A stretch of DNA of 64,000 nt. Origin: a virus (lineage: Duplodnaviria > Heunggongvirae > Uroviricota > Caudoviricetes). Below, piece after piece: positions 4,423-32,157 of the stretch. Positions within the stretch are counted from its first letter, which is position 1. The number at the start of each line of letters is the position of its first letter. The notes below the pieces were generated by a model, which saw only the letters and a program-made list of their open reading frames with translations, ran no database searches and was not told where the DNA came from. The stretch lies in the IMG/VR virus record IMGVR_UViG_2654587674_000003; one strand, 5' to 3'. The position numbers and the translations under genes were made by a program.

Positions 4423-5151
4423 ATGATGTCAGAAAAAGTTAAAGATAATCCGTCTATAAATGAAACAGAACTAAAATCATTTTCTGAAATAATAAAAGAT
4501 AAAATATTTAACAAGGTTTTTGCATATGTTGTCATTTCTTTTCTAATTTTTAACTGGAAGGATATTTTAATTATATTAAAGTCAAAGGACGACATCCTAT
4601 ATACATTATCTATTGTTTCTGTTGGTGGTAATGTCCCGTTCATTGATAATTGGATTGTATCCCCGTGGGTTTATCACGTTGTAATCCCATTTATTTATGG
4701 AGTATTTGCATCTGTGTTAGCTCCTGTTCTCACACTGAAGATATCTAAGCTAACAAGTAAATTATACACTGAAATAAGATATTTAGATGAAGTTGCTGAT
4801 TATGATAAAAGAATAGAATTGCAAAGAAAGAAAACAAAGTTAAATCAAGCAACCAATGACGCTAAATATTCAAAACAAATCTTAGATGAAAATGAAAATA
4901 AACTTAATGACTTGGTTACGAAACAGCGAGAAATTTGTGGCGCGATAAAACTATTGCATACTGATGTTGGCAGTATTATTGAACTATATAAAAATAAGGG
5001 GGTTAGCATTGAATCTCCGCAAGATTTATGTGATTTTATAGTCGCTATAAAAAGCACATCATTCTATAATGATGACAAGCATTTTAATAAATTGGTGTCT
5101 GATATTTCCAGTTTGTTTGATAATACTGGAATTGATCTTTCAAAAAAATGA
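4423..5151 (+). CDS. membrane protein with C-terminal coiled coil, function unknown (candidate defence or exclusion factor)
   Basis: 242-aa ORF; two predicted TM helices (VFAYVVISFLIFNW; WVYHVVIPFIYGVFASVLAPVL); coding region is strikingly AT-rich compared with flanks; own terminator. Confidence 0.5.
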   Translation: MMSEKVKDNPSINETELKSFSEIIKDKIFNKVFAYVVISFLIFNWKDILIILKSKDDILYTLSIVSVGGNVPFIDNWIVSPWVYHVVIPFIYGVFASVLAPVLTLKISKLTSKLYTEIRYLDEVADYDKRIELQRKKTKLNQATNDAKYSKQILDENENKLNDLVTKQREICGAIKLLHTDVGSIIELYKNKGVSIESPQDLCDFIVAIKSTSFYNDDKHFNKLVSDISSLFDNTGIDLSKK

Positions 5152-23366: not shown

Positions 23367-23756
23367 ATGGGCTTCCCTTCTCCTGCGGCGGATTATGTTG
23401 AAAGCCGAATTTCTCTTGATCAGCAGATAATTAGACATCCTTCAGCGACCTACTTCATGCGGGCAGCTGATAGCCATCACCGTGAGGGAATATTGCAGGG
23501 TGCTTTGCTGGTGGTTGATTCCTCGCTTACTCCGGTTGATGGTTCTCTGCTTGTGTGCGCTATGGAGGGTGAATATCGCATAAAGAGATACAGGAAGTAT
23601 CCGCGCCAGCACCTGGAGGACTTAAGCACCGGGAAGAAAGAGGCGTTACCAGTAGATGACGATGGATACACGGGCAGTAATGCTGTTTTTGGTGTGATCA
23701 CTCATGTCATCAATGATGCCCGAAGTGGGGAATTTGATGATTGTCCGGTTATTTAA
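23367..23756 (+). CDS. humD: UmuD-like protein (HumD)
   Basis: 129 aa; GFPSPAADYVE motif and S24-peptidase-like core; LexA box upstream. Confidence 0.7.
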   Translation: MGFPSPAADYVESRISLDQQIIRHPSATYFMRAADSHHREGILQGALLVVDSSLTPVDGSLLVCAMEGEYRIKRYRKYPRQHLEDLSTGKKEALPVDDDGYTGSNAVFGVITHVINDARSGEFDDCPVI

Positions 23757-23828
23757 GCTGCAAAGTGCTGGTGCTTTATGCCTGTGAAGTTTATAATTGT
23801 GTACACATAACGAGTACACGAGGTGTTT

Positions 23829-24050
23829 ATGCAATCCATTAACTTCCGTACCGCGCGTGGCAACCTTTCTGAAGTGCTCAACAATGTTGAAGCCGGGGAA
23901 GAGGTTGAAATCACCCGCAGAGGCCGTGAGCCAGCAGTAATTGTCAGCAAGGCTACTTTTGAAGCCTACAAAAAAGCGGCGCTGGATGCCGAATTTGCAT
24001 CCCTGTTTGACACCCTGGACTCCACCAACAAGGAACTGGTTAACCGATAA
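23829..24050 (+). CDS. phd: Phd antitoxin
   Basis: [49 protein letters not shown] matches P1 Phd as I recall it. Confidence 0.85.
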
Positions 24051-24430
24051 TGAGGCATATATCACCGGAAGAACTTATTGCGCTTCATGATGCGAATATA
24101 AGCCGCTACGGCGGCCTGCCGGGAATGTCAGATCCGGGTAGGGCAGAGGCCATTATCGGGAGAGTTCAGGCCAGAGTTGCCTACGAAGAGATCACCGACC
24201 TTTTCGAAGTCTCCGCCACCTACCTGGTGGCTACGGCGAGAGGGCATATATTCAATGATGCCAATAAGCGTACCGCGCTAAACAGTGCGCTGCTATTTCT
24301 ACGCCGTAACGGTATACAGGTATATGATTCTCCCGTGCTGGTGGAACTTGCGGTGGGGGCCGCAACTGGTGAAATCCCCGTATCTTCAGTAGCGGAAAAA
24401 CTACGTGAATTATTTGGTTCCAATATTTGA
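24050..24430 (+). CDS. doc: Doc toxin (Fic-fold kinase)
   Basis: [40 protein letters not shown]...[15 protein letters not shown] matches P1 Doc as I recall it. Confidence 0.9.
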
Positions 24431-24433
24431 AAA

Positions 24434-24459
24434 GAAGCCCGCTCAACCAGGCGGGCTTC
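24434..24459. terminator. bidirectional terminator hairpin
   Basis: gaagcccgc-tcaaccag-gcgggcttc, 9-bp stem between convergent genes. Confidence 0.5.
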
Positions 24460-24465
24460 CTACTA

Positions 24466-25560
24466 TCACTCAATGATTTTTTCTGCTGTCAGCCAGCTAA
24501 TTTCTTGCCTGTCTTTCGGCGGTTTTAGCATGTGGGCGTATTCAGCGACATTCTCCCACGAAATTGTTTTTGCCCACTCAACGATAGCATTGTGATCTGC
24601 AGTGAAGAGTGGAATGGTGTGCGATTTCAACCATTCTAATGTCGTGACGCCATGTTTTTTGGCGTGGTGCTGCGCATGATGCCGGGCTATCACTCGTAAT
24701 GGTATTGTCCATTCACTACCATCAGGCATCGAAAAGCGCATTGTCTTCGGCATATCTGATTCAAGAACAGCCTCCCTAATACCAGGGAACTCACCAAGAA
24801 TCATACGACGATAGTCATCACTATTTCGCCCGCCATACCTTTCGGCAAAATGATCAAGATATTCTTGGGTAATAAATGGTGAATCCTCCGCACTCAGCTT
24901 AATGGCTTTATATACACCACTCGGATTATCTTCAGCTAAAGCACGTCCATGATGTGAATCATAAAAAAAGCCTATTTCCTCTGGTGACGGAATTGAAGTG
25001 AGCAATATGCGTGAATCACCACTAGTCATGCTTGCCCACACAATGCTGTATGCCTGATCGCTGATATGTGCGGAATCCACAATAATGAATAAAAGATGGT
25101 CGGCGTAGTGACCTGCAATGCTATCTTCATAGTTAAGGCGGAAGTTACAAAAGCACATTCCCCAAAATTCATTGAACATCAGACCGCTATCACCGACCTT
25201 AAAATACTCAATGATAAAAGGTTGTTTTTTCAGCAATGCCTCCCAACATTGCCACACATATGCAACAATTCCTCTTTTGCAAACATTTGATTTTGGATAA
25301 ACAATTACTGTCCGGGAATCAGGATACATAATCGTATAAAGGGTACTAATAACAGCAAGCACTTGCGGTCGTCCGATCCCATACGGAGTGGTGACAGTAG
25401 CTTTTGCATTATTGGGCTGTATAGCTTCAACAATTTGTTGTTGCTGGTGGCTTAAATCAATATCAAACAATTCTTTTGCTGCCAGTACCCAATTGTCTTT
25501 ATATTTCTCCACCAGCGACAGCCAGCGCGGATCTTTATAAATATTGCTCTTAGTCGCCAT
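24466..25560 (-). CDS. terminase large-subunit ATPase-domain paralog with degenerate Walker motifs
   Basis: start MATKSNIYKDPRWL parallels the PacB N-terminus; FFYDSHHGRA..DNPSGVYKAIKLSAEDSPF aligns with PacB FYDSHHSRA..DNPKGIWTAIVLNSEESPF; Walker A replaced by PYGIGRPQ; no nuclease-domain length. Confidence 0.5.
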   Translation of the reverse strand: MATKSNIYKDPRWLSLVEKYKDNWVLAAKELFDIDLSHQQQQIVEAIQPNNAKATVTTPYGIGRPQVLAVISTLYTIMYPDSRTVIVYPKSNVCKRGIVAYVWQCWEALLKKQPFIIEYFKVGDSGLMFNEFWGMCFCNFRLNYEDSIAGHYADHLLFIIVDSAHISDQAYSIVWASMTSGDSRILLTSIPSPEEIGFFYDSHHGRALAEDNPSGVYKAIKLSAEDSPFITQEYLDHFAERYGGRNSDDYRRMILGEFPGIREAVLESDMPKTMRFSMPDGSEWTIPLRVIARHHAQHHAKKHGVTTLEWLKSHTIPLFTADHNAIVEWAKTISWENVAEYAHMLKPPKDRQEISWLTAEKIIE

Positions 25561-26317
25561 CTGCCACTTCCTTAACTTCTTCTTTGGCCTGTTCTGCAAT
25601 CGCCGCACGGCATTTCGCCCTGGCTGTAGCGATTGCTTCAGCTCGCACATCGTCTGGAATCGTTGACGTGATATACATATCCAGTTCTTCGGCACGGAAT
25701 ACTGTTTGGTCCAGATATTCGCGTAGCATCCAGGTAAATTCGAAATCACACGCGATAATCTCTGCGCTACCTTCTGCACCATTTGGGAAATGAATAAATG
25801 CCTGTTTAGCCAAACCGATAACACGACATGCGGTTGCCAAAACAGCGACAACCAGGTTTACATTTTCACACGCTACGGGCTGGTTAACGCCGGAGATTAC
25901 TCCATTTAACTGTCGGTTATATGGAAGGTAGTTTGAGATGCGTTCTACGCGCCATGTGCCAGTCAGGCTGCCATTTTTAAATATAATTGGTGTAACGGAT
26001 AGCCCAAGCTCGCGTATAAGTCGTTGCGCTATAGCAGGATCATTAAACAGGTCTAATGCTACACATTCGAAAGACTGCGCAAGGGCAAACAGTTCTTCCA
26101 GAGAGTAGTCTTTGCCCCTGGCGGTGATGTAACGACGAACGCCGCTGTCTGCATCACTCCATATAGCTACGCCATGCTCTTCATTCAGCTCTTCATTAAA
26201 GCCGAGATACGTCATGATAGTGCGTTCAATCGTGTCAAACGGCAGTGACATGTCGGCGTTAACAGCCACCAGCAGGCCATTACGCAAGCGGTATTGAATT
26301 GTTTTAGTGCTTTCCAT
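25550..26317 (-). CDS. hypothetical protein
   Basis: 255-aa ORF, overlapping stop/start with the terminase paralog. Confidence 0.4.
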   Translation of the reverse strand: MESTKTIQYRLRNGLLVAVNADMSLPFDTIERTIMTYLGFNEELNEEHGVAIWSDADSGVRRYITARGKDYSLEELFALAQSFECVALDLFNDPAIAQRLIRELGLSVTPIIFKNGSLTGTWRVERISNYLPYNRQLNGVISGVNQPVACENVNLVVAVLATACRVIGLAKQAFIHFPNGAEGSAEIIACDFEFTWMLREYLDQTVFRAEELDMYITSTIPDDVRAEAIATARAKCRAAIAEQAKEEVKEVADGD

Positions 26318-26323
26318 GTCAAA

Positions 26324-26764
26324 TCACTCCACAACAAACCAGTCACAGGCCAGCAGGTCGCCAACTGAAGGCACCCACGGAACAACTACACCTTGTGCAT
26401 TTTTTAAGGCGAAATAAGCACCATACGGAACGAGGTCGCCGGGGAAATATCCCTTAATGGCTTCCATTCGTGCCGGGTACTGTCCTTCAGGAACCAGCCA
26501 GCAGAATTGGTTTTCGCCGTTCCACCCGCGTCGAGCAACTTTCTTGCCTTCCTTCAGCCACATCAGCGCGTCTGAAAAGTCGGCTGCTTCAAGGTCGATT
26601 TCTTCTTGCTGGGTGGTGATGCCACCAGCAGAAATAGTTACGCTCCCGGTAAGATTAATCATCACGCCGTTGTCATCCGTAATGATGACCGTGGTTCCAT
26701 TTTTTTTGTGAGCTTTGTATTTGGGACGGAACTTAAAAAGCTCTTTCGTTGCCATGTTATTCAT
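26324..26764 (-). CDS. DUF2829-like protein (candidate anti-defence sponge family)
   Basis: 146 aa; FSDALMWLKEGKKVARRGWNGENQF motif characteristic of DUF2829 as I recall. Confidence 0.4.
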   Translation of the reverse strand: MNNMATKELFKFRPKYKAHKKNGTTVIITDDNGVMINLTGSVTISAGGITTQQEEIDLEAADFSDALMWLKEGKKVARRGWNGENQFCWLVPEGQYPARMEAIKGYFPGDLVPYGAYFALKNAQGVVVPWVPSVGDLLACDWFVVE

Positions 26765-26778
26765 AGTCTTTTCTCTGC

Positions 26779-27273
26779 TTATAACTTTTCGTACTGAAGC
26801 GGTGAACGCTTAATTTCAAAGTGGCCTTCCGATGTGCTACCAAAGCCACCAGCACCACGCTCCGTTTCGTTGAGTTCCTCAACCTCGACTAGTGAGACTT
26901 GTTCAACACGCTCAAAAATTCCTTGCATGACAGCCATTCCAGGCTTGAGACAAACGCCTTCCCCGCCTGGATCAGTAATCAGTTTTGCCATGATTTCGCC
27001 GCGATAATCGGAGTCGATAATTCCTACGCAGTTAGCCAGGCGAGTATGTTTTTTGCAGCCCAATCCTGATCGCGGATAGAGTTTCAGACACCAGCCGGGC
27101 GGGATCTCCATAGCCAGTCCGGTATACACCCACCAGCTTGAGGAAATTGCACCATTGCTATCGACGCATGGTTTTATTTCAACAGCCTCAAAATCCATCG
27201 CCGCCGATCCGGAGGTGGCATAAGCTGGAAGTTTTGCTGCCGGATGTAGGCGTTTCACTTTTACGTAAATCAT
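26779..27273 (-). CDS. dut: dUTP diphosphatase
   Basis: YATSGSAAMD, PRSGLGCK, GIIDSDYRGEI, GGFGSTS motifs. Confidence 0.7.
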   Translation of the reverse strand: MIYVKVKRLHPAAKLPAYATSGSAAMDFEAVEIKPCVDSNGAISSSWWVYTGLAMEIPPGWCLKLYPRSGLGCKKHTRLANCVGIIDSDYRGEIMAKLITDPGGEGVCLKPGMAVMQGIFERVEQVSLVEVEELNETERGAGGFGSTSEGHFEIKRSPLQYEKL

Positions 27274-28160: not shown

Positions 28161-29189
28161 TTACGAATCCATCAGGCGGCTATTAGCCCCCACAGACACG
28201 CCGCCACGGCGAAGATACCGCATAAGTGTTTCCGGTTTCTTCCAGGTTCCTTCCTGCATGATCTCCACCATAGACACCTGCTTTTCAGCCATATCAATAG
28301 CGGCCCCGACGCGTGCACTATGCCCAGTCCACGTCCGGTATCTTCCTTTGTTTGGCGTAGCATCTCTTTTATTCAGCAACACCCAGGCGTCGCTGAATAT
28401 TTTCTCCATTGCAGGTGCAGTAAGGGGCGTTGTCGTAATCCTGGCCTTATTGCTACGGTGTATCGGCGGGAACAGCACCGCGTCAGGATGTTCACGAAGC
28501 CCGGAAACATCCAGCCAGTCATTCAGCACAGCAGTAGTGCGACGGGAAAGCACCTTATCAAGCCCGGCGGCGGTCGTTATTGTCTTCGTGTGTGAAATAT
28601 GTAGCGTGACAGTGTCACCTGTTTGGTCCAGATCTCCTACACGAATACGCGAGATTTCCGACATACGCATCAGCGTATTGTATGCAACAAAGAGAAAAGC
28701 CCGGTTGCGCTGGTCCACCAGCCGTTCTGACCTGGACAGCAGGACGTCGAGCAGTTTCAGGTCGTCCCACCGCAACGGTATAGCCTGGCCTGTTCGCTCG
28801 CCTTTTTCCGTTGCCGCTTCACGCCGGATGCGCCGCATGGCCAGAGACACACTTTTATCGTCCGACAGCGGCGGGAGGCCACATTGCGAAAGCAGCATGT
28901 TAAGCATGGCATAGTGCTTATCAATGGTGGTCGAAGCCAGATCAGCATCATGCAGCTGAAGAAAATACTCGCGGGCCATCTCTGGTGAGATCGGGAACCA
29001 GGCGAGCTGGCGAGCGTGACACCATCTCGCCCAGGAGTGAAACACTAACCGGAGATCGCGCAAAGTATTCGGCGCGTAAGCCCCCTGGTCATTCATGAAC
29101 CGCATAAAGTTTTCTGCGGCCTCCTGGTACTCTTTGCCAATGTTGCGCAGAAAACCACCGGAGCTGCCAGAGATAATTAATTTACTCAT
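28161..29189 (-). CDS. dre: Cre-family tyrosine recombinase (Dre-like)
   Basis: 342 aa; VSLAMRRIRRE, NRAFLFVAYNTLMRMSEISRIRV, WTGHSARVGAAIDMA...EIMQEGTWK align with Cre catalytic core; rox-like site 150 bp upstream. Confidence 0.85.
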   Translation of the reverse strand: MSKLIISGSSGGFLRNIGKEYQEAAENFMRFMNDQGAYAPNTLRDLRLVFHSWARWCHARQLAWFPISPEMAREYFLQLHDADLASTTIDKHYAMLNMLLSQCGLPPLSDDKSVSLAMRRIRREAATEKGERTGQAIPLRWDDLKLLDVLLSRSERLVDQRNRAFLFVAYNTLMRMSEISRIRVGDLDQTGDTVTLHISHTKTITTAAGLDKVLSRRTTAVLNDWLDVSGLREHPDAVLFPPIHRSNKARITTTPLTAPAMEKIFSDAWVLLNKRDATPNKGRYRTWTGHSARVGAAIDMAEKQVSMVEIMQEGTWKKPETLMRYLRRGGVSVGANSRLMDS

Positions 29190-29341
29190 GAAACTATTTA
29201 ACCTCTATATACAGATGACGCTACGCGAAAAATATAAAAATGACAGGGTAGCTATAAGTTAATTTTCAAGATTCAAGCCTTTGATCCGAGGCACGTATTT
29301 TCAGTGATGTCAACACTGATCATCTACCCATGATTATAGCC

Positions 29342-29373
29342 TAACTTTAAATAATGCCAATTATTTAAAGTTA
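29342..29373. other. rox-like lox-type recombination site
   Basis: taactttaaataat-gcca-attatttaaagtta: perfect 14-bp inverted repeats with 4-bp spacer; arms share ATAACTT...ATA with loxP. Confidence 0.85.
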
Positions 29374-30630: not shown

Positions 30631-30654
30631 GCCCCGCATCGCGGGGCTTTATAT
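30631..30654 (+). terminator. intrinsic terminator
   Basis: gccccgc-atc-gcggggc followed by tttatatat. Confidence 0.5.
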
Positions 30655-32157
30655 ATCCAGATCCGGCATTTCGATATCCGCCAGAACCTGATCTCGGAAA
30701 GTTGCCATTTCGGCACCAATATCTTCATTAGCAGGCACATAGTCCACCAGCATAGTGAAGCAGTAGGTATCCCATCGGTCAGGCGATTTGATGTTTAGCT
30801 TTTGCCGCATGTGCTCTTTGCGCATCATCGCCATTTTCCCTTCTTCATTCAGTAAAAAGGGGATTTTTGACGCTTGCTCTGCCGTTTTAGGGTCACTGTC
30901 TATCCGCATACGCCCTGACTTTATGGCATCACGCGCCATAATGTTTGCGTAGGCACGCTGATTAACAAATCGCTCCCTGTCTTTGTTCGCAAACATGGGT
31001 TTTCCCCACCGAATACGTACCGGGTTCGCACCACGACGCACCAACTGCGCACACGTATCAGAACCAAAACCATCAGCATCAACCGCGATTGTTATATTCG
31101 GGTATTTTTCCGGCGTACATTCGTTATATATGAAGTCAGCAAAGGCCAATGGGTCCATAGTGCCAGGCATCTCCATTACCTTAAAGTTAACAACGCGCCG
31201 CTTATCCCTGTGACCTGATACCTTGCAGATGTTGAGGACCGACTTATCTCGCCCATTACCAACGTCAGCCGTTGCCACCCATCCCCAGTTTTTCTCCAAC
31301 AACACCTTGCGGCGAGCAGAGCGATCGCATTCATCACGACCAAGCAAATAGCCGTTAATTTCTCGTGGGAACTGACCAAGCACCTTGACCATGTACTCAA
31401 TAGAATCGCGCCCACCATATTCCAGAAGCTTCTCCTTGATGAATTGTGGTGTGACGAACGGTGATTCTTCCGAGTTAAGAACAATTGCTGTCCAGATCCC
31501 TTTCGGGTTGTCTGGGGTTTTTGCTCGAGAATGGTGCGAATCGTAGAAATAACCACTTGGCCTTGTTGGCTGGGATAGCATCAACATCCGGTTATCTTCT
31601 TCAGTAAGAGCACCGGTCATTACGCCGATCGCCTTATCAGATATACCAGATGCTTCATCCAGAATTAGAAGCAAATGTGCCGCGTGTTCCCCCGCCAGCG
31701 CTTCTTCGTTGCCGAGTCGATAACCTTTGCAGAGAACTTCCCAAATCCCCTTACGGGAGCGCTCATAAAACATGGTGTCAGAGAGGACAAAATAGGTCTG
31801 CAACCACCCATGACGCTTAACTGCATTCGCCCAATACTGTTTAACGTATTTGAATACGCCTGTTTTTACCTGGCCTATCTTGTTAGCAACAATGATGACA
31901 CGGGCATCGGGGAACAGGATCATAAAAATCAACAGCAACATCGCGGTAAGGGACGACTTCCCCGTTCCGTGTCCGGACGTGACGGTCGTCCTACTCCCCG
32001 TTTCCTGCACTGACTGAATGATCTGCTGCTGCTGGTGGGAGGGGAACATCCCAAAAATATCGACTACAGCCTGGGTAAAGTTGTAGCGGTATTTGATTAC
32101 CATATCGCGCCAGCGTGGATCGCTGGTGACGCATTTAATCTTGCGCCCGCCAGCCAT
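30649..32157 (-). CDS. pacB: terminase large subunit (PacB-like)
   Basis: 502 aa; Walker A TSGHGTGKSS, Walker B LLLILDEASG, C-terminal nuclease-length domain. Confidence 0.75.
   Translation of the reverse strand: MAGGRKIKCVTSDPRWRDMVIKYRYNFTQAVVDIFGMFPSHQQQQIIQSVQETGSRTTVTSGHGTGKSSLTAMLLLIFMILFPDARVIIVANKIGQVKTGVFKYVKQYWANAVKRHGWLQTYFVLSDTMFYERSRKGIWEVLCKGYRLGNEEALAGEHAAHLLLILDEASGISDKAIGVMTGALTEEDNRMLMLSQPTRPSGYFYDSHHSRAKTPDNPKGIWTAIVLNSEESPFVTPQFIKEKLLEYGGRDSIEYMVKVLGQFPREINGYLLGRDECDRSARRKVLLEKNWGWVATADVGNGRDKSVLNICKVSGHRDKRRVVNFKVMEMPGTMDPLAFADFIYNECTPEKYPNITIAVDADGFGSDTCAQLVRRGANPVRIRWGKPMFANKDRERFVNQRAYANIMARDAIKSGRMRIDSDPKTAEQASKIPFLLNEEGKMAMMRKEHMRQKLNIKSPDRWDTYCFTMLVDYVPANEDIGAEMATFRDQVLADIEMPDLDI

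Follow-up and report, generated by a model that had tools for sequence, protein, structure and literature searches.

A Tad2-family gene with the remnant of a Dec-like module in a D6-like phage-plasmid, a probable sponge for TIR-made immune signals

The stretch of DNA analyzed here, 64,000 nucleotides long and hereafter called the window, is about 98% identical (97.9% in the region considered) to Escherichia phage D6, a P1-related phage-plasmid. On its minus strand, at 26324..26764, it carries the orthologue of D6 orf114, a complete ORF starting with ATG that encodes 146 amino acids (aa) followed by a stop codon. A first reading of this DNA, made from its letters and ORFs (the sequence-only reading), had proposed a DUF2829-like gene with a family motif in its C-terminal half and a 60-aa N-terminal extension, located between a hypothetical gene and the dUTPase gene. 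The motif, ALMWLKEGKKVARRGWNG, is indeed found at aa 66-83 (26516..26569, minus strand), where it covers helix alpha1, strand beta1 and the GWNG loop that covers the ligand. The location was also correct: upstream, 14 nt from the start codon, lies dut, which encodes the dUTPase (26779..27273, minus strand; PF00692, E=1.7e-14, and D6 annotation), and downstream, after a 6-nt gap, a 255-aa isaA-like ORF (25550..26317, minus strand; phrog_2326, E=9.7e-134, noted in D6 as 'similar to P1 gene isaA'). Since the long-form homologues of the protein share its N-terminus, MNN(M/K)ATKELF, and no suitable internal ATG exists, M1 was taken as the start. An internal start giving a stand-alone Tad2 domain was considered and rejected: the only internal Met codons are codons 4, 35, 68 and 100, and there is no in-frame ATG just upstream of aa 58-62.

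The gene belongs to a series of seven genes on the minus strand: dre, two small ORFs, dut, the Tad2 gene, the isaA-like gene and a 364-aa ORF (24466-25560). The first of them, dre (28161..29189, minus strand), encodes a Cre-like tyrosine recombinase (D6 annotation 'similar to P1 gene cre'; PF00589 was found in its homologue from the D6-like contig L003). From the first small ORF on, the cluster is tight: neighboring genes overlap by 4 nt or, in one case, by 11 nt, or are separated by gaps of 14 and 6 nt. Upstream of the cluster, a single good sigma-70-type match was found, TTGGCA-16-TATAAT (11/12; 29333..29360, minus strand). It is a consensus match located upstream of dre, and a terminator-like hairpin found by consensus scan just after the 364-aa ORF (24437..24452, minus strand) would mark the end of an operon. 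The gene had previously been placed in a 'recombinase operon'; the same-strand cluster led by dre is real, and co-transcription with dre, for which the evidence consists of consensus scans, is plausible. The promoter match overlaps the rox site (TAACTTTAAATAATTGGCATTATTTAAAGTTA, 29333-29372, minus strand), and binding of Dre could affect transcription of the cluster. Even when up to three mismatches are allowed, the consensus of the P1 C1 operator, ATTGCTCTAATAAATTT, is absent from the window, which is uninformative about regulation since D6 has its own repressor.

Pfam returned nothing for the isaA-like, orf116 and orf117 proteins, PHROGs assign them only to families of unknown function, NCBIfam has no model matching the 146-aa protein or its neighbors, and no functional link between the Tad2 gene and the isaA-like gene was found beyond their adjacency. 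The 364-aa ORF is a paralogue of the N-terminal half of a 502-aa terminase-like protein also encoded in the window (30649-32157, minus strand; 37% identity over 258 aa, E=7e-57). The GHGTGKS sequence of the latter, which we take to be a Walker A motif, is PYGIGRP in the 364-aa paralogue, which judging from this alignment is probably a terminase ATPase domain that has lost its activity. As in P1, a phd/doc toxin-antitoxin pair (23823-24430, plus strand) and humD, which encodes a UmuD'-like protein (23367-23756, plus strand), lie immediately past the cluster.

The membership of the 146-aa protein in the DUF2829 family, previously suggested from the motif, was borne out by profile search. DUF2829 is now PF11195, the 'Thoeris anti-defense 2-like domain' (Tad2-like), to which aa 62-146 (26327..26581, minus strand) belong: aa 62-145 match profile positions 2-73 of 73 with 81.6 bits for a gathering score of 25 (E=5.9e-23), a sequence match far beyond chance. 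A phmmer search against all PDB sequences returned Tad2-family proteins only, namely ModTad2 (9EIB/8V3E, best E=8e-21, about 1e-20), HgmTad2/AcrIIA7, SPO1 Tad2 and SptTad2. Furthermore, the AlphaFold2 (AF2) model, based on an alignment of 81 homologues, has pLDDT values of 88-96 over aa 61-146. The Tad2 fold has helix alpha1 at its N-terminus, an antiparallel beta-sheet in which the beta2-beta5 insert varies, and a short C-terminal helix preceding the final strand. The predicted elements (helix 63-71, strands 75-78 and 87-91, and so on to helix 134-138 and strand 142-145) and the Foldseek comparison both give this fold. All 24 significant Foldseek matches of the model in the PDB are Tad2 structures, the top one being ModTad2 in complex with His-ADPR (9eib, E=3.9e-10), and the target-normalised TM-score against ModTad2 is 0.76-0.88. 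At 146 aa, with a 61-aa N-terminal remnant, the protein is longer than the stand-alone Tad2 proteins of about 80-100 aa. However, small size is typical of the family rather than defining, as shown by the active 151-aa HgmTad2 and by many fusions. By sequence and model, the protein clearly belongs to the Tad2 family.

The N-terminal extension announced by the sequence-only reading is also real, the Pfam domain beginning at aa 62, but it is the remnant of an in-frame deletion of 79 codons and not an added domain. Searches for homologues mostly returned proteins of 216-233 aa encoded by contigs of about 90 kb. On contig L003, a 225-aa gene occupies the identical position, after dut. Protein alignment shows that the window protein corresponds to this 225-aa form minus residues 21-99, its aa 21-61 aligning with aa 100-140 of the long form, and DNA alignment with L003 reveals a 237-bp in-frame deletion that is common to the window and phage D6. 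The junction lies at the 3' end of the N-terminal stub, in an A-run around 26698-26710, and the microhomology CAAAAA is found at both deletion ends. The 225-aa proteins (P0001; J46_0048 of the P1-like phage SJ46; phrog_872) are thus encoded by the same gene at the same locus in D6-like and P1-like phage-plasmids. They share the N-terminal 20 aa, the linker and the Tad2 domain with the window protein (96-98% identity outside the deleted segment) and differ from it by keeping codons 21-99. Their N-terminal module (P0001 aa 1-135; L003 5001-5405; SJ46, L002 about 4704-5110) is homologous to Dec, the capsid decoration protein of phage L (6E3C, profile E=2.6e-9), and the OB-fold domain of Dec type lies in the segment that is absent from the window protein.

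What is left of this module consists of a stub of 20 aa (MNNMATKELFKFRPKYKAHK, 26705..26764, minus strand), recognized as retained from the long form by DNA alignment with L003 and D6, and a linker (aa 21-61; 26582..26704, minus strand). The linker comprises a probable remnant of the Dec-like stalk (KNGTTVIITDDNGVMINLTGSVTISAGG...), which aligns with the start of the Dec C-terminal stalk, and the conserved EEIDLEAA that leads into the Tad2 domain. Through the long-form profile, aa 30-48 (DDNGVMINLTGSVTISAGG) align with about residues 104-122 of Dec ('TARTITLTGAVTGSAS'), a short stretch with pLDDT 59-70. The AF2 model gives the whole linker four short strands at these same pLDDT values and falls below 50 for aa 1-4 and 13-22 of the stub region. 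According to these alignments, the extension is a relic, a 20-aa stub followed by a 41-aa stalk-like linker, without any new domain. In Dec, the OB-fold is the capsid-binding part and the C-terminal stalk forms a trimeric beta-helix. A stalk fragment from a trimerising family attached to a domain of the tetramer-forming Tad2 family could interfere with assembly.

The view that the DUF2829 family includes phage sponge proteins agrees with the literature, in which several Tad2 proteins are experimentally proven sponges. SPO1 Tad2 and HgmTad2 bind gcADPR, and HgmTad2 also binds cyclic dinucleotides. ModTad2 binds His-ADPR, the signal of type II Thoeris, as well as cUMP and cCMP, the signals of Pycsar, and inhibits both systems but not type I Thoeris, while Tad2_71 binds N7-cADPR. 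The solved homologues are homotetramers (dimers of dimers) with pockets at the protomer interfaces, and a single Tad2 protein can hold widely different ligands, using two separate pockets. The form shown to be active in experiments is the stand-alone Tad2 domain. In addition, the 151-aa HgmTad2 used as a control is active against type I Thoeris, and N-terminal extensions are therefore tolerated in the family. Since the ligands are so varied and several tested homologues inhibited nothing, neither specificity nor activity is fixed by homology alone.

The pocket residues of the window protein were therefore compared with those of known sponges. In HgmTad2, W21/N22/G23, W87, S90 and D93 contact gcADPR, T92 hydrogen-bonds the adenine, and mutating W21/N22/G23 reduces binding (Li et al.). 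The contact residues align with W81/N82/G83, W130, S133 and D136 of the window protein, among which W81, W130, S133 and D136 show a conservation of 90% or more in the 81 homologues. For the ADPR-signal pocket as a whole (W21/N22/G23, W87, S90, T92 and D93 of HgmTad2), 6 of the 7 positions are thus kept. The exception is T92, which corresponds to Gly135, likewise a Gly in Tad2_68. Moreover, A78 and T82 of HgmTad2 are replaced by Asn122 and Val126. These three replacements make the affinity of the window protein for gcADPR uncertain. The cyclic-dinucleotide pocket of HgmTad2 is not conserved: R31 is replaced by V91, S47 belongs to an insert that is absent here, and N85 is opposite a gap. The beta6-alpha4 loop is PSVGD. 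Similar loops are found in three of four type II inhibitors (PSIGD in Tad2_68, PSVSD in ModTad2 and PSSSD in Tad2_76), whereas most type I binders (SPO1 Tad2, HgmTad2 and Tad2_70/82/83) carry SQTD or SQAD.

Hadary et al. (2025, bioRxiv 10.1101/2025.08.24.671296) list tested homologues in their Table S2, and alignment of the window's Tad2 domain with these gave identities of 64% with Tad2_68, 47% with ModTad2, 41% with HgmTad2 and 34% with SPO1 Tad2. Tad2_68, from an IMG/VR metagenome, is the closest experimentally screened relative. It aligns over 87 aa without internal gaps, shares ...YPARMEA[IV]KG... and FALKNAQG.VVPW.PS[VI]GD with the window domain, and differs in being an 87-aa stand-alone protein. 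In the same table, Tad2_68 is positive against type II Thoeris in 3 of 3 assay columns. It is also positive against type I in the plaque assay, in a row with a failed 96-well transformation, and negative against type IV Thoeris, CBASS and Pycsar. Among solved structures, ModTad2 (also MoTad2), from a Myroides odoratus prophage (PDB 8V3E apo, 9EIB with His-ADPR), ranks first in both sequence and fold similarity. It aligns over 88 aa with one gap, has a beta2-beta5 insert of the same length class and shares the loops GWNG and PSV[S/G]D. However, it is an 88-aa stand-alone protein, whereas the window domain follows a 61-aa remnant, and it has Ser where the window protein has Gly135. SPO1 Tad2 (Gp34.65) and HgmTad2/AcrIIA7, the founding gcADPR sponges, share Pfam family, fold and the W-N-G/W/S/D pocket residues, but are more distant (34-41% identity) and carry an SQTD loop instead of PSVGD. 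HgmTad2 also has a long insert binding cyclic dinucleotides that is lacking here.

Taken together, these comparisons lead us to consider it likely that the window protein is a cytoplasmic Tad2 sponge for ADPR-type signals made by TIR proteins, and that its N-terminal 61 residues, left by the deletion, have no independent role. The C-terminal 85-89 residues would fold as a Tad2 domain and, by analogy with the solved homologues, would assemble into a homotetramer. The pockets between protomers would bind and sequester ADP-ribose-derived immune signals produced by TIR proteins, so that the Thoeris effector would stay inactive when a D6-like phage-plasmid infects its host or is induced. Judging from the closest tested relatives, the ligands would include His-ADPR (type II Thoeris) and probably 3'cADPR/gcADPR (type I). 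Since Tad2_68 and ModTad2 are close and the PSVGD loop resembles those of type II inhibitors, our best guess is a sponge for His-ADPR and possibly for 3'cADPR. The 237-bp deletion would have removed the Dec-like OB-fold from a 225-aa ancestor, a form that is still present at the locus in sister plasmids.

The protein might instead be a working sponge of another specificity, directed against the cUMP/cCMP of Pycsar, the N7-cADPR of type IV Thoeris, the cyclic dinucleotides of CBASS or an undescribed signal. The ability of single Tad2 proteins to accommodate very different ligands in two pockets leaves room for this, as does the inhibition of Pycsar by ModTad2, the closest solved relative. Variation among the sister alleles of P1-like plasmids in the regions forming the pockets points in the same direction. 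Allelic Tad2 domains of such plasmids (P0010/P0031/P0033 and P0035/P0055/P0058/P0070/P0075) differ there: in one type the beta2-beta5 insert is 8 aa longer (PDKQGASRLTPIKHAANGDLEINFDSPL), and in the other GWNG is changed to GWKG or EWKG and the insert is shorter, a pattern of sequence variation that suggests diversification of ligand specificity. However, Tad2_68, which is nearer to the window protein than ModTad2, showed no activity against Pycsar, CBASS or type IV Thoeris, and the residues of the HgmTad2 cyclic-dinucleotide pocket (R31, S47 and N85) are not conserved. We therefore regard another specificity as unlikely, and a sponge for TIR-made ADPR-type signals as the better reading.

At the D6 locus, the Tad2 domain occurs in three structural alleles, in all of which it is kept at 98-99% identity: the 225-aa long form of L003, the 146-aa deletion form, and a fusion of dUTPase to Tad2. 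This fusion (P0028, 241 aa, in frame), seen in several independent samples, is encoded at 3001-3726 of contig L006 and 2067-2792 of contig L007 and corresponds to 26324-27273 of the window. It results from a deletion different from that of the window, joining '...ERGAGG' of dut to '...SAGG|ITTQQ' of the linker, and its Tad2 domain is 99% identical to that of the window protein. Stand-alone relatives of 86-90 aa (P0080, P0084-88; 65-75% identity) likewise have the Tad2 domain only. The 146-aa protein is 98.6% identical to that of D6 and is found in exact form on 527 contigs, and a gene 100% identical to that of the window is carried by E. coli plasmid p702_18_3 (NZ_CP074704.1). Among 5426 complete E. 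coli genomes, 213 carry a near homologue, which nearly always resides on a plasmid of about 90-100 kb. In these genomes the long form is more frequent; the deletion junction is found in nine of the 213, from human, chicken-meat, horse and pig sources.

This distribution bears on whether the 225-aa Dec-like/Tad2 protein is the functional unit, of which the deletion would have left a transcribed but useless fragment. Besides the rarity of the junction, such a loss would fit the simple microhomology deletion from which the allele arose and the poorly modelled N-terminal remnant. However, the deletion has neither broken the reading frame nor touched the Tad2 domain. The window and D6 genes differ by 8 synonymous and 2 non-synonymous codons, and within the Tad2 domain by 7 to 1. 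These differences arose since the shared deletion, and the Tad2 domain is under purifying selection. The maintenance of one exact protein on hundreds of contigs and the independent reduction to the Tad2 domain in the dUTPase fusion and in the stand-alone relatives also stand against a relic, as does the experimental activity of stand-alone domains. Since it is intact in all alleles and fusions, the Tad2 domain appears to be the unit under selection. These sequence data suggest that the truncated gene is still functional, as expected for a sponge, and make an inactive relic quite improbable.

In P1-like phage SJ46, the gene order is ssb-DUF2829-isaA, the DUF2829 gene being of the long form. P1 has no Tad2 gene, isaA directly following ssb; disruption of a Tad2 gene by IS1 was ruled out there, as P1 simply lacks the gene. 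The Tad2 gene is thus an accessory cassette, always located just upstream of isaA in D6-like and P1-like elements. As annotated, P1 isaA and the DUF2829 gene of SJ46 begin with one and the same stretch of about 56 extra codons (VVQTPTKARTRKQ...; L004 4570-4737 in P1, L002 4536-4703 in SJ46). This stretch, located downstream of ssb, is probably intergenic and not translated, and the true starts of both genes are likely to be internal Met codons. In other contigs, of about 80-94 kb, proteins P0036, P0038, P0043, P0049, P0050 and P0057 combine a Tad2 domain 80-85% identical to that of the window with a C-terminal PF21825 domain. The PF21825 family, recently given the name Sequestin, has proved to be a sponge acting on type I Thoeris. 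These double-sponge fusions apparently reside on related phage-plasmids.

The Dec-type origin of the N-terminus raises the question of an extracellular or structural role, the decoration-like ancestor displaying DUF2829 on the virion instead of acting as a sponge. The part of Dec that binds the capsid, the OB-fold, is precisely what the window protein has lost, while the sponge pocket residues are conserved. The gene also belongs to no late or structural cluster, being located beside dut and dre in D6-like elements and after the ssb promoter in P1-like ones. The P1 annotation gives ssb a sigma-70 promoter controlled by a C1 operator, which fits early expression, as would suit an anti-defence gene that acts early, rather than that of a late structural gene and hence argues against capsid decoration. 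In addition, the fusion partners of Tad2 that were tested, Acb4 and Sequestin, turned out to be sponges themselves. A capsid-associated role is thus very improbable.

Lastly, the E. coli and Salmonella hosts of D6-like elements are not known to carry type II CRISPR-Cas, which counts against the protein being an AcrIIA7-type anti-CRISPR that inhibits Cas9. Although AcrIIA7 (PDB 8kbi, 9kzr) belongs to the same family (E~1e-10 to 1e-11), the anti-Cas9 activity of the Tad2/AcrIIA7 family is disputed in the literature, Yirmiya et al. arguing that DUF2829 proteins are anti-Thoeris rather than anti-CRISPR, and we give this role next to no credit compared with that of a sponge for TIR-made signals.

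The assignment to the family is already public, and in this respect the finding is ordinary and largely known. RefSeq gives the name 'DUF2829 domain-containing protein' to the orthologue in D6 as well as to the identical gene of the E. coli plasmid, and according to a 2025 preprint on phage-plasmids, 'Tad2 AcrIIA7 (anti-Thoeris)' is present in 93% of the D6-like elements and 56% of the P1-like ones. What is new here is the explanation of the N-terminal extension as the deletion remnant of a Dec-like module. The Dec-like/Tad2 architecture had been seen before but not studied, since Hadary et al. excluded homologues with a 6E3C-like or PF21825 domain from their survey, and our literature search yielded no description of the deletion allele or of a Dec-like origin for the N-terminus. 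The one less ordinary aspect is the role of this module in the long form, where it might serve as a decoration, an oligomerisation or another ligand-binding module. One bolder possibility, to which we attach a rather low probability, is that the locus repeatedly repackages one Tad2 domain, in Dec-like OB-fold, OB-deleted, dUTPase and Sequestin forms. By analogy with Acb4 and Sequestin, the OB-fold could then be a further sponge or ligand-binding module, or else one targeting the capsid, and the window/D6 allele would be a naturally domain-deleted form lacking this second activity.

Beyond the public annotation, our analysis places the Tad2 domain nearest to sponges shown to block type II Thoeris, and the structural alleles that preserve this domain provide convenient natural test constructs. 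Pathogenic E. coli, Shigella and Salmonella commonly harbor D6-like and P1-like phage-plasmids. Provided that the protein does act as a sponge, these elements come equipped with an inhibitor of TIR/Thoeris signalling, which could aid their establishment or induction in defended hosts and, incidentally, could weaken the defence of these hosts against other phages.
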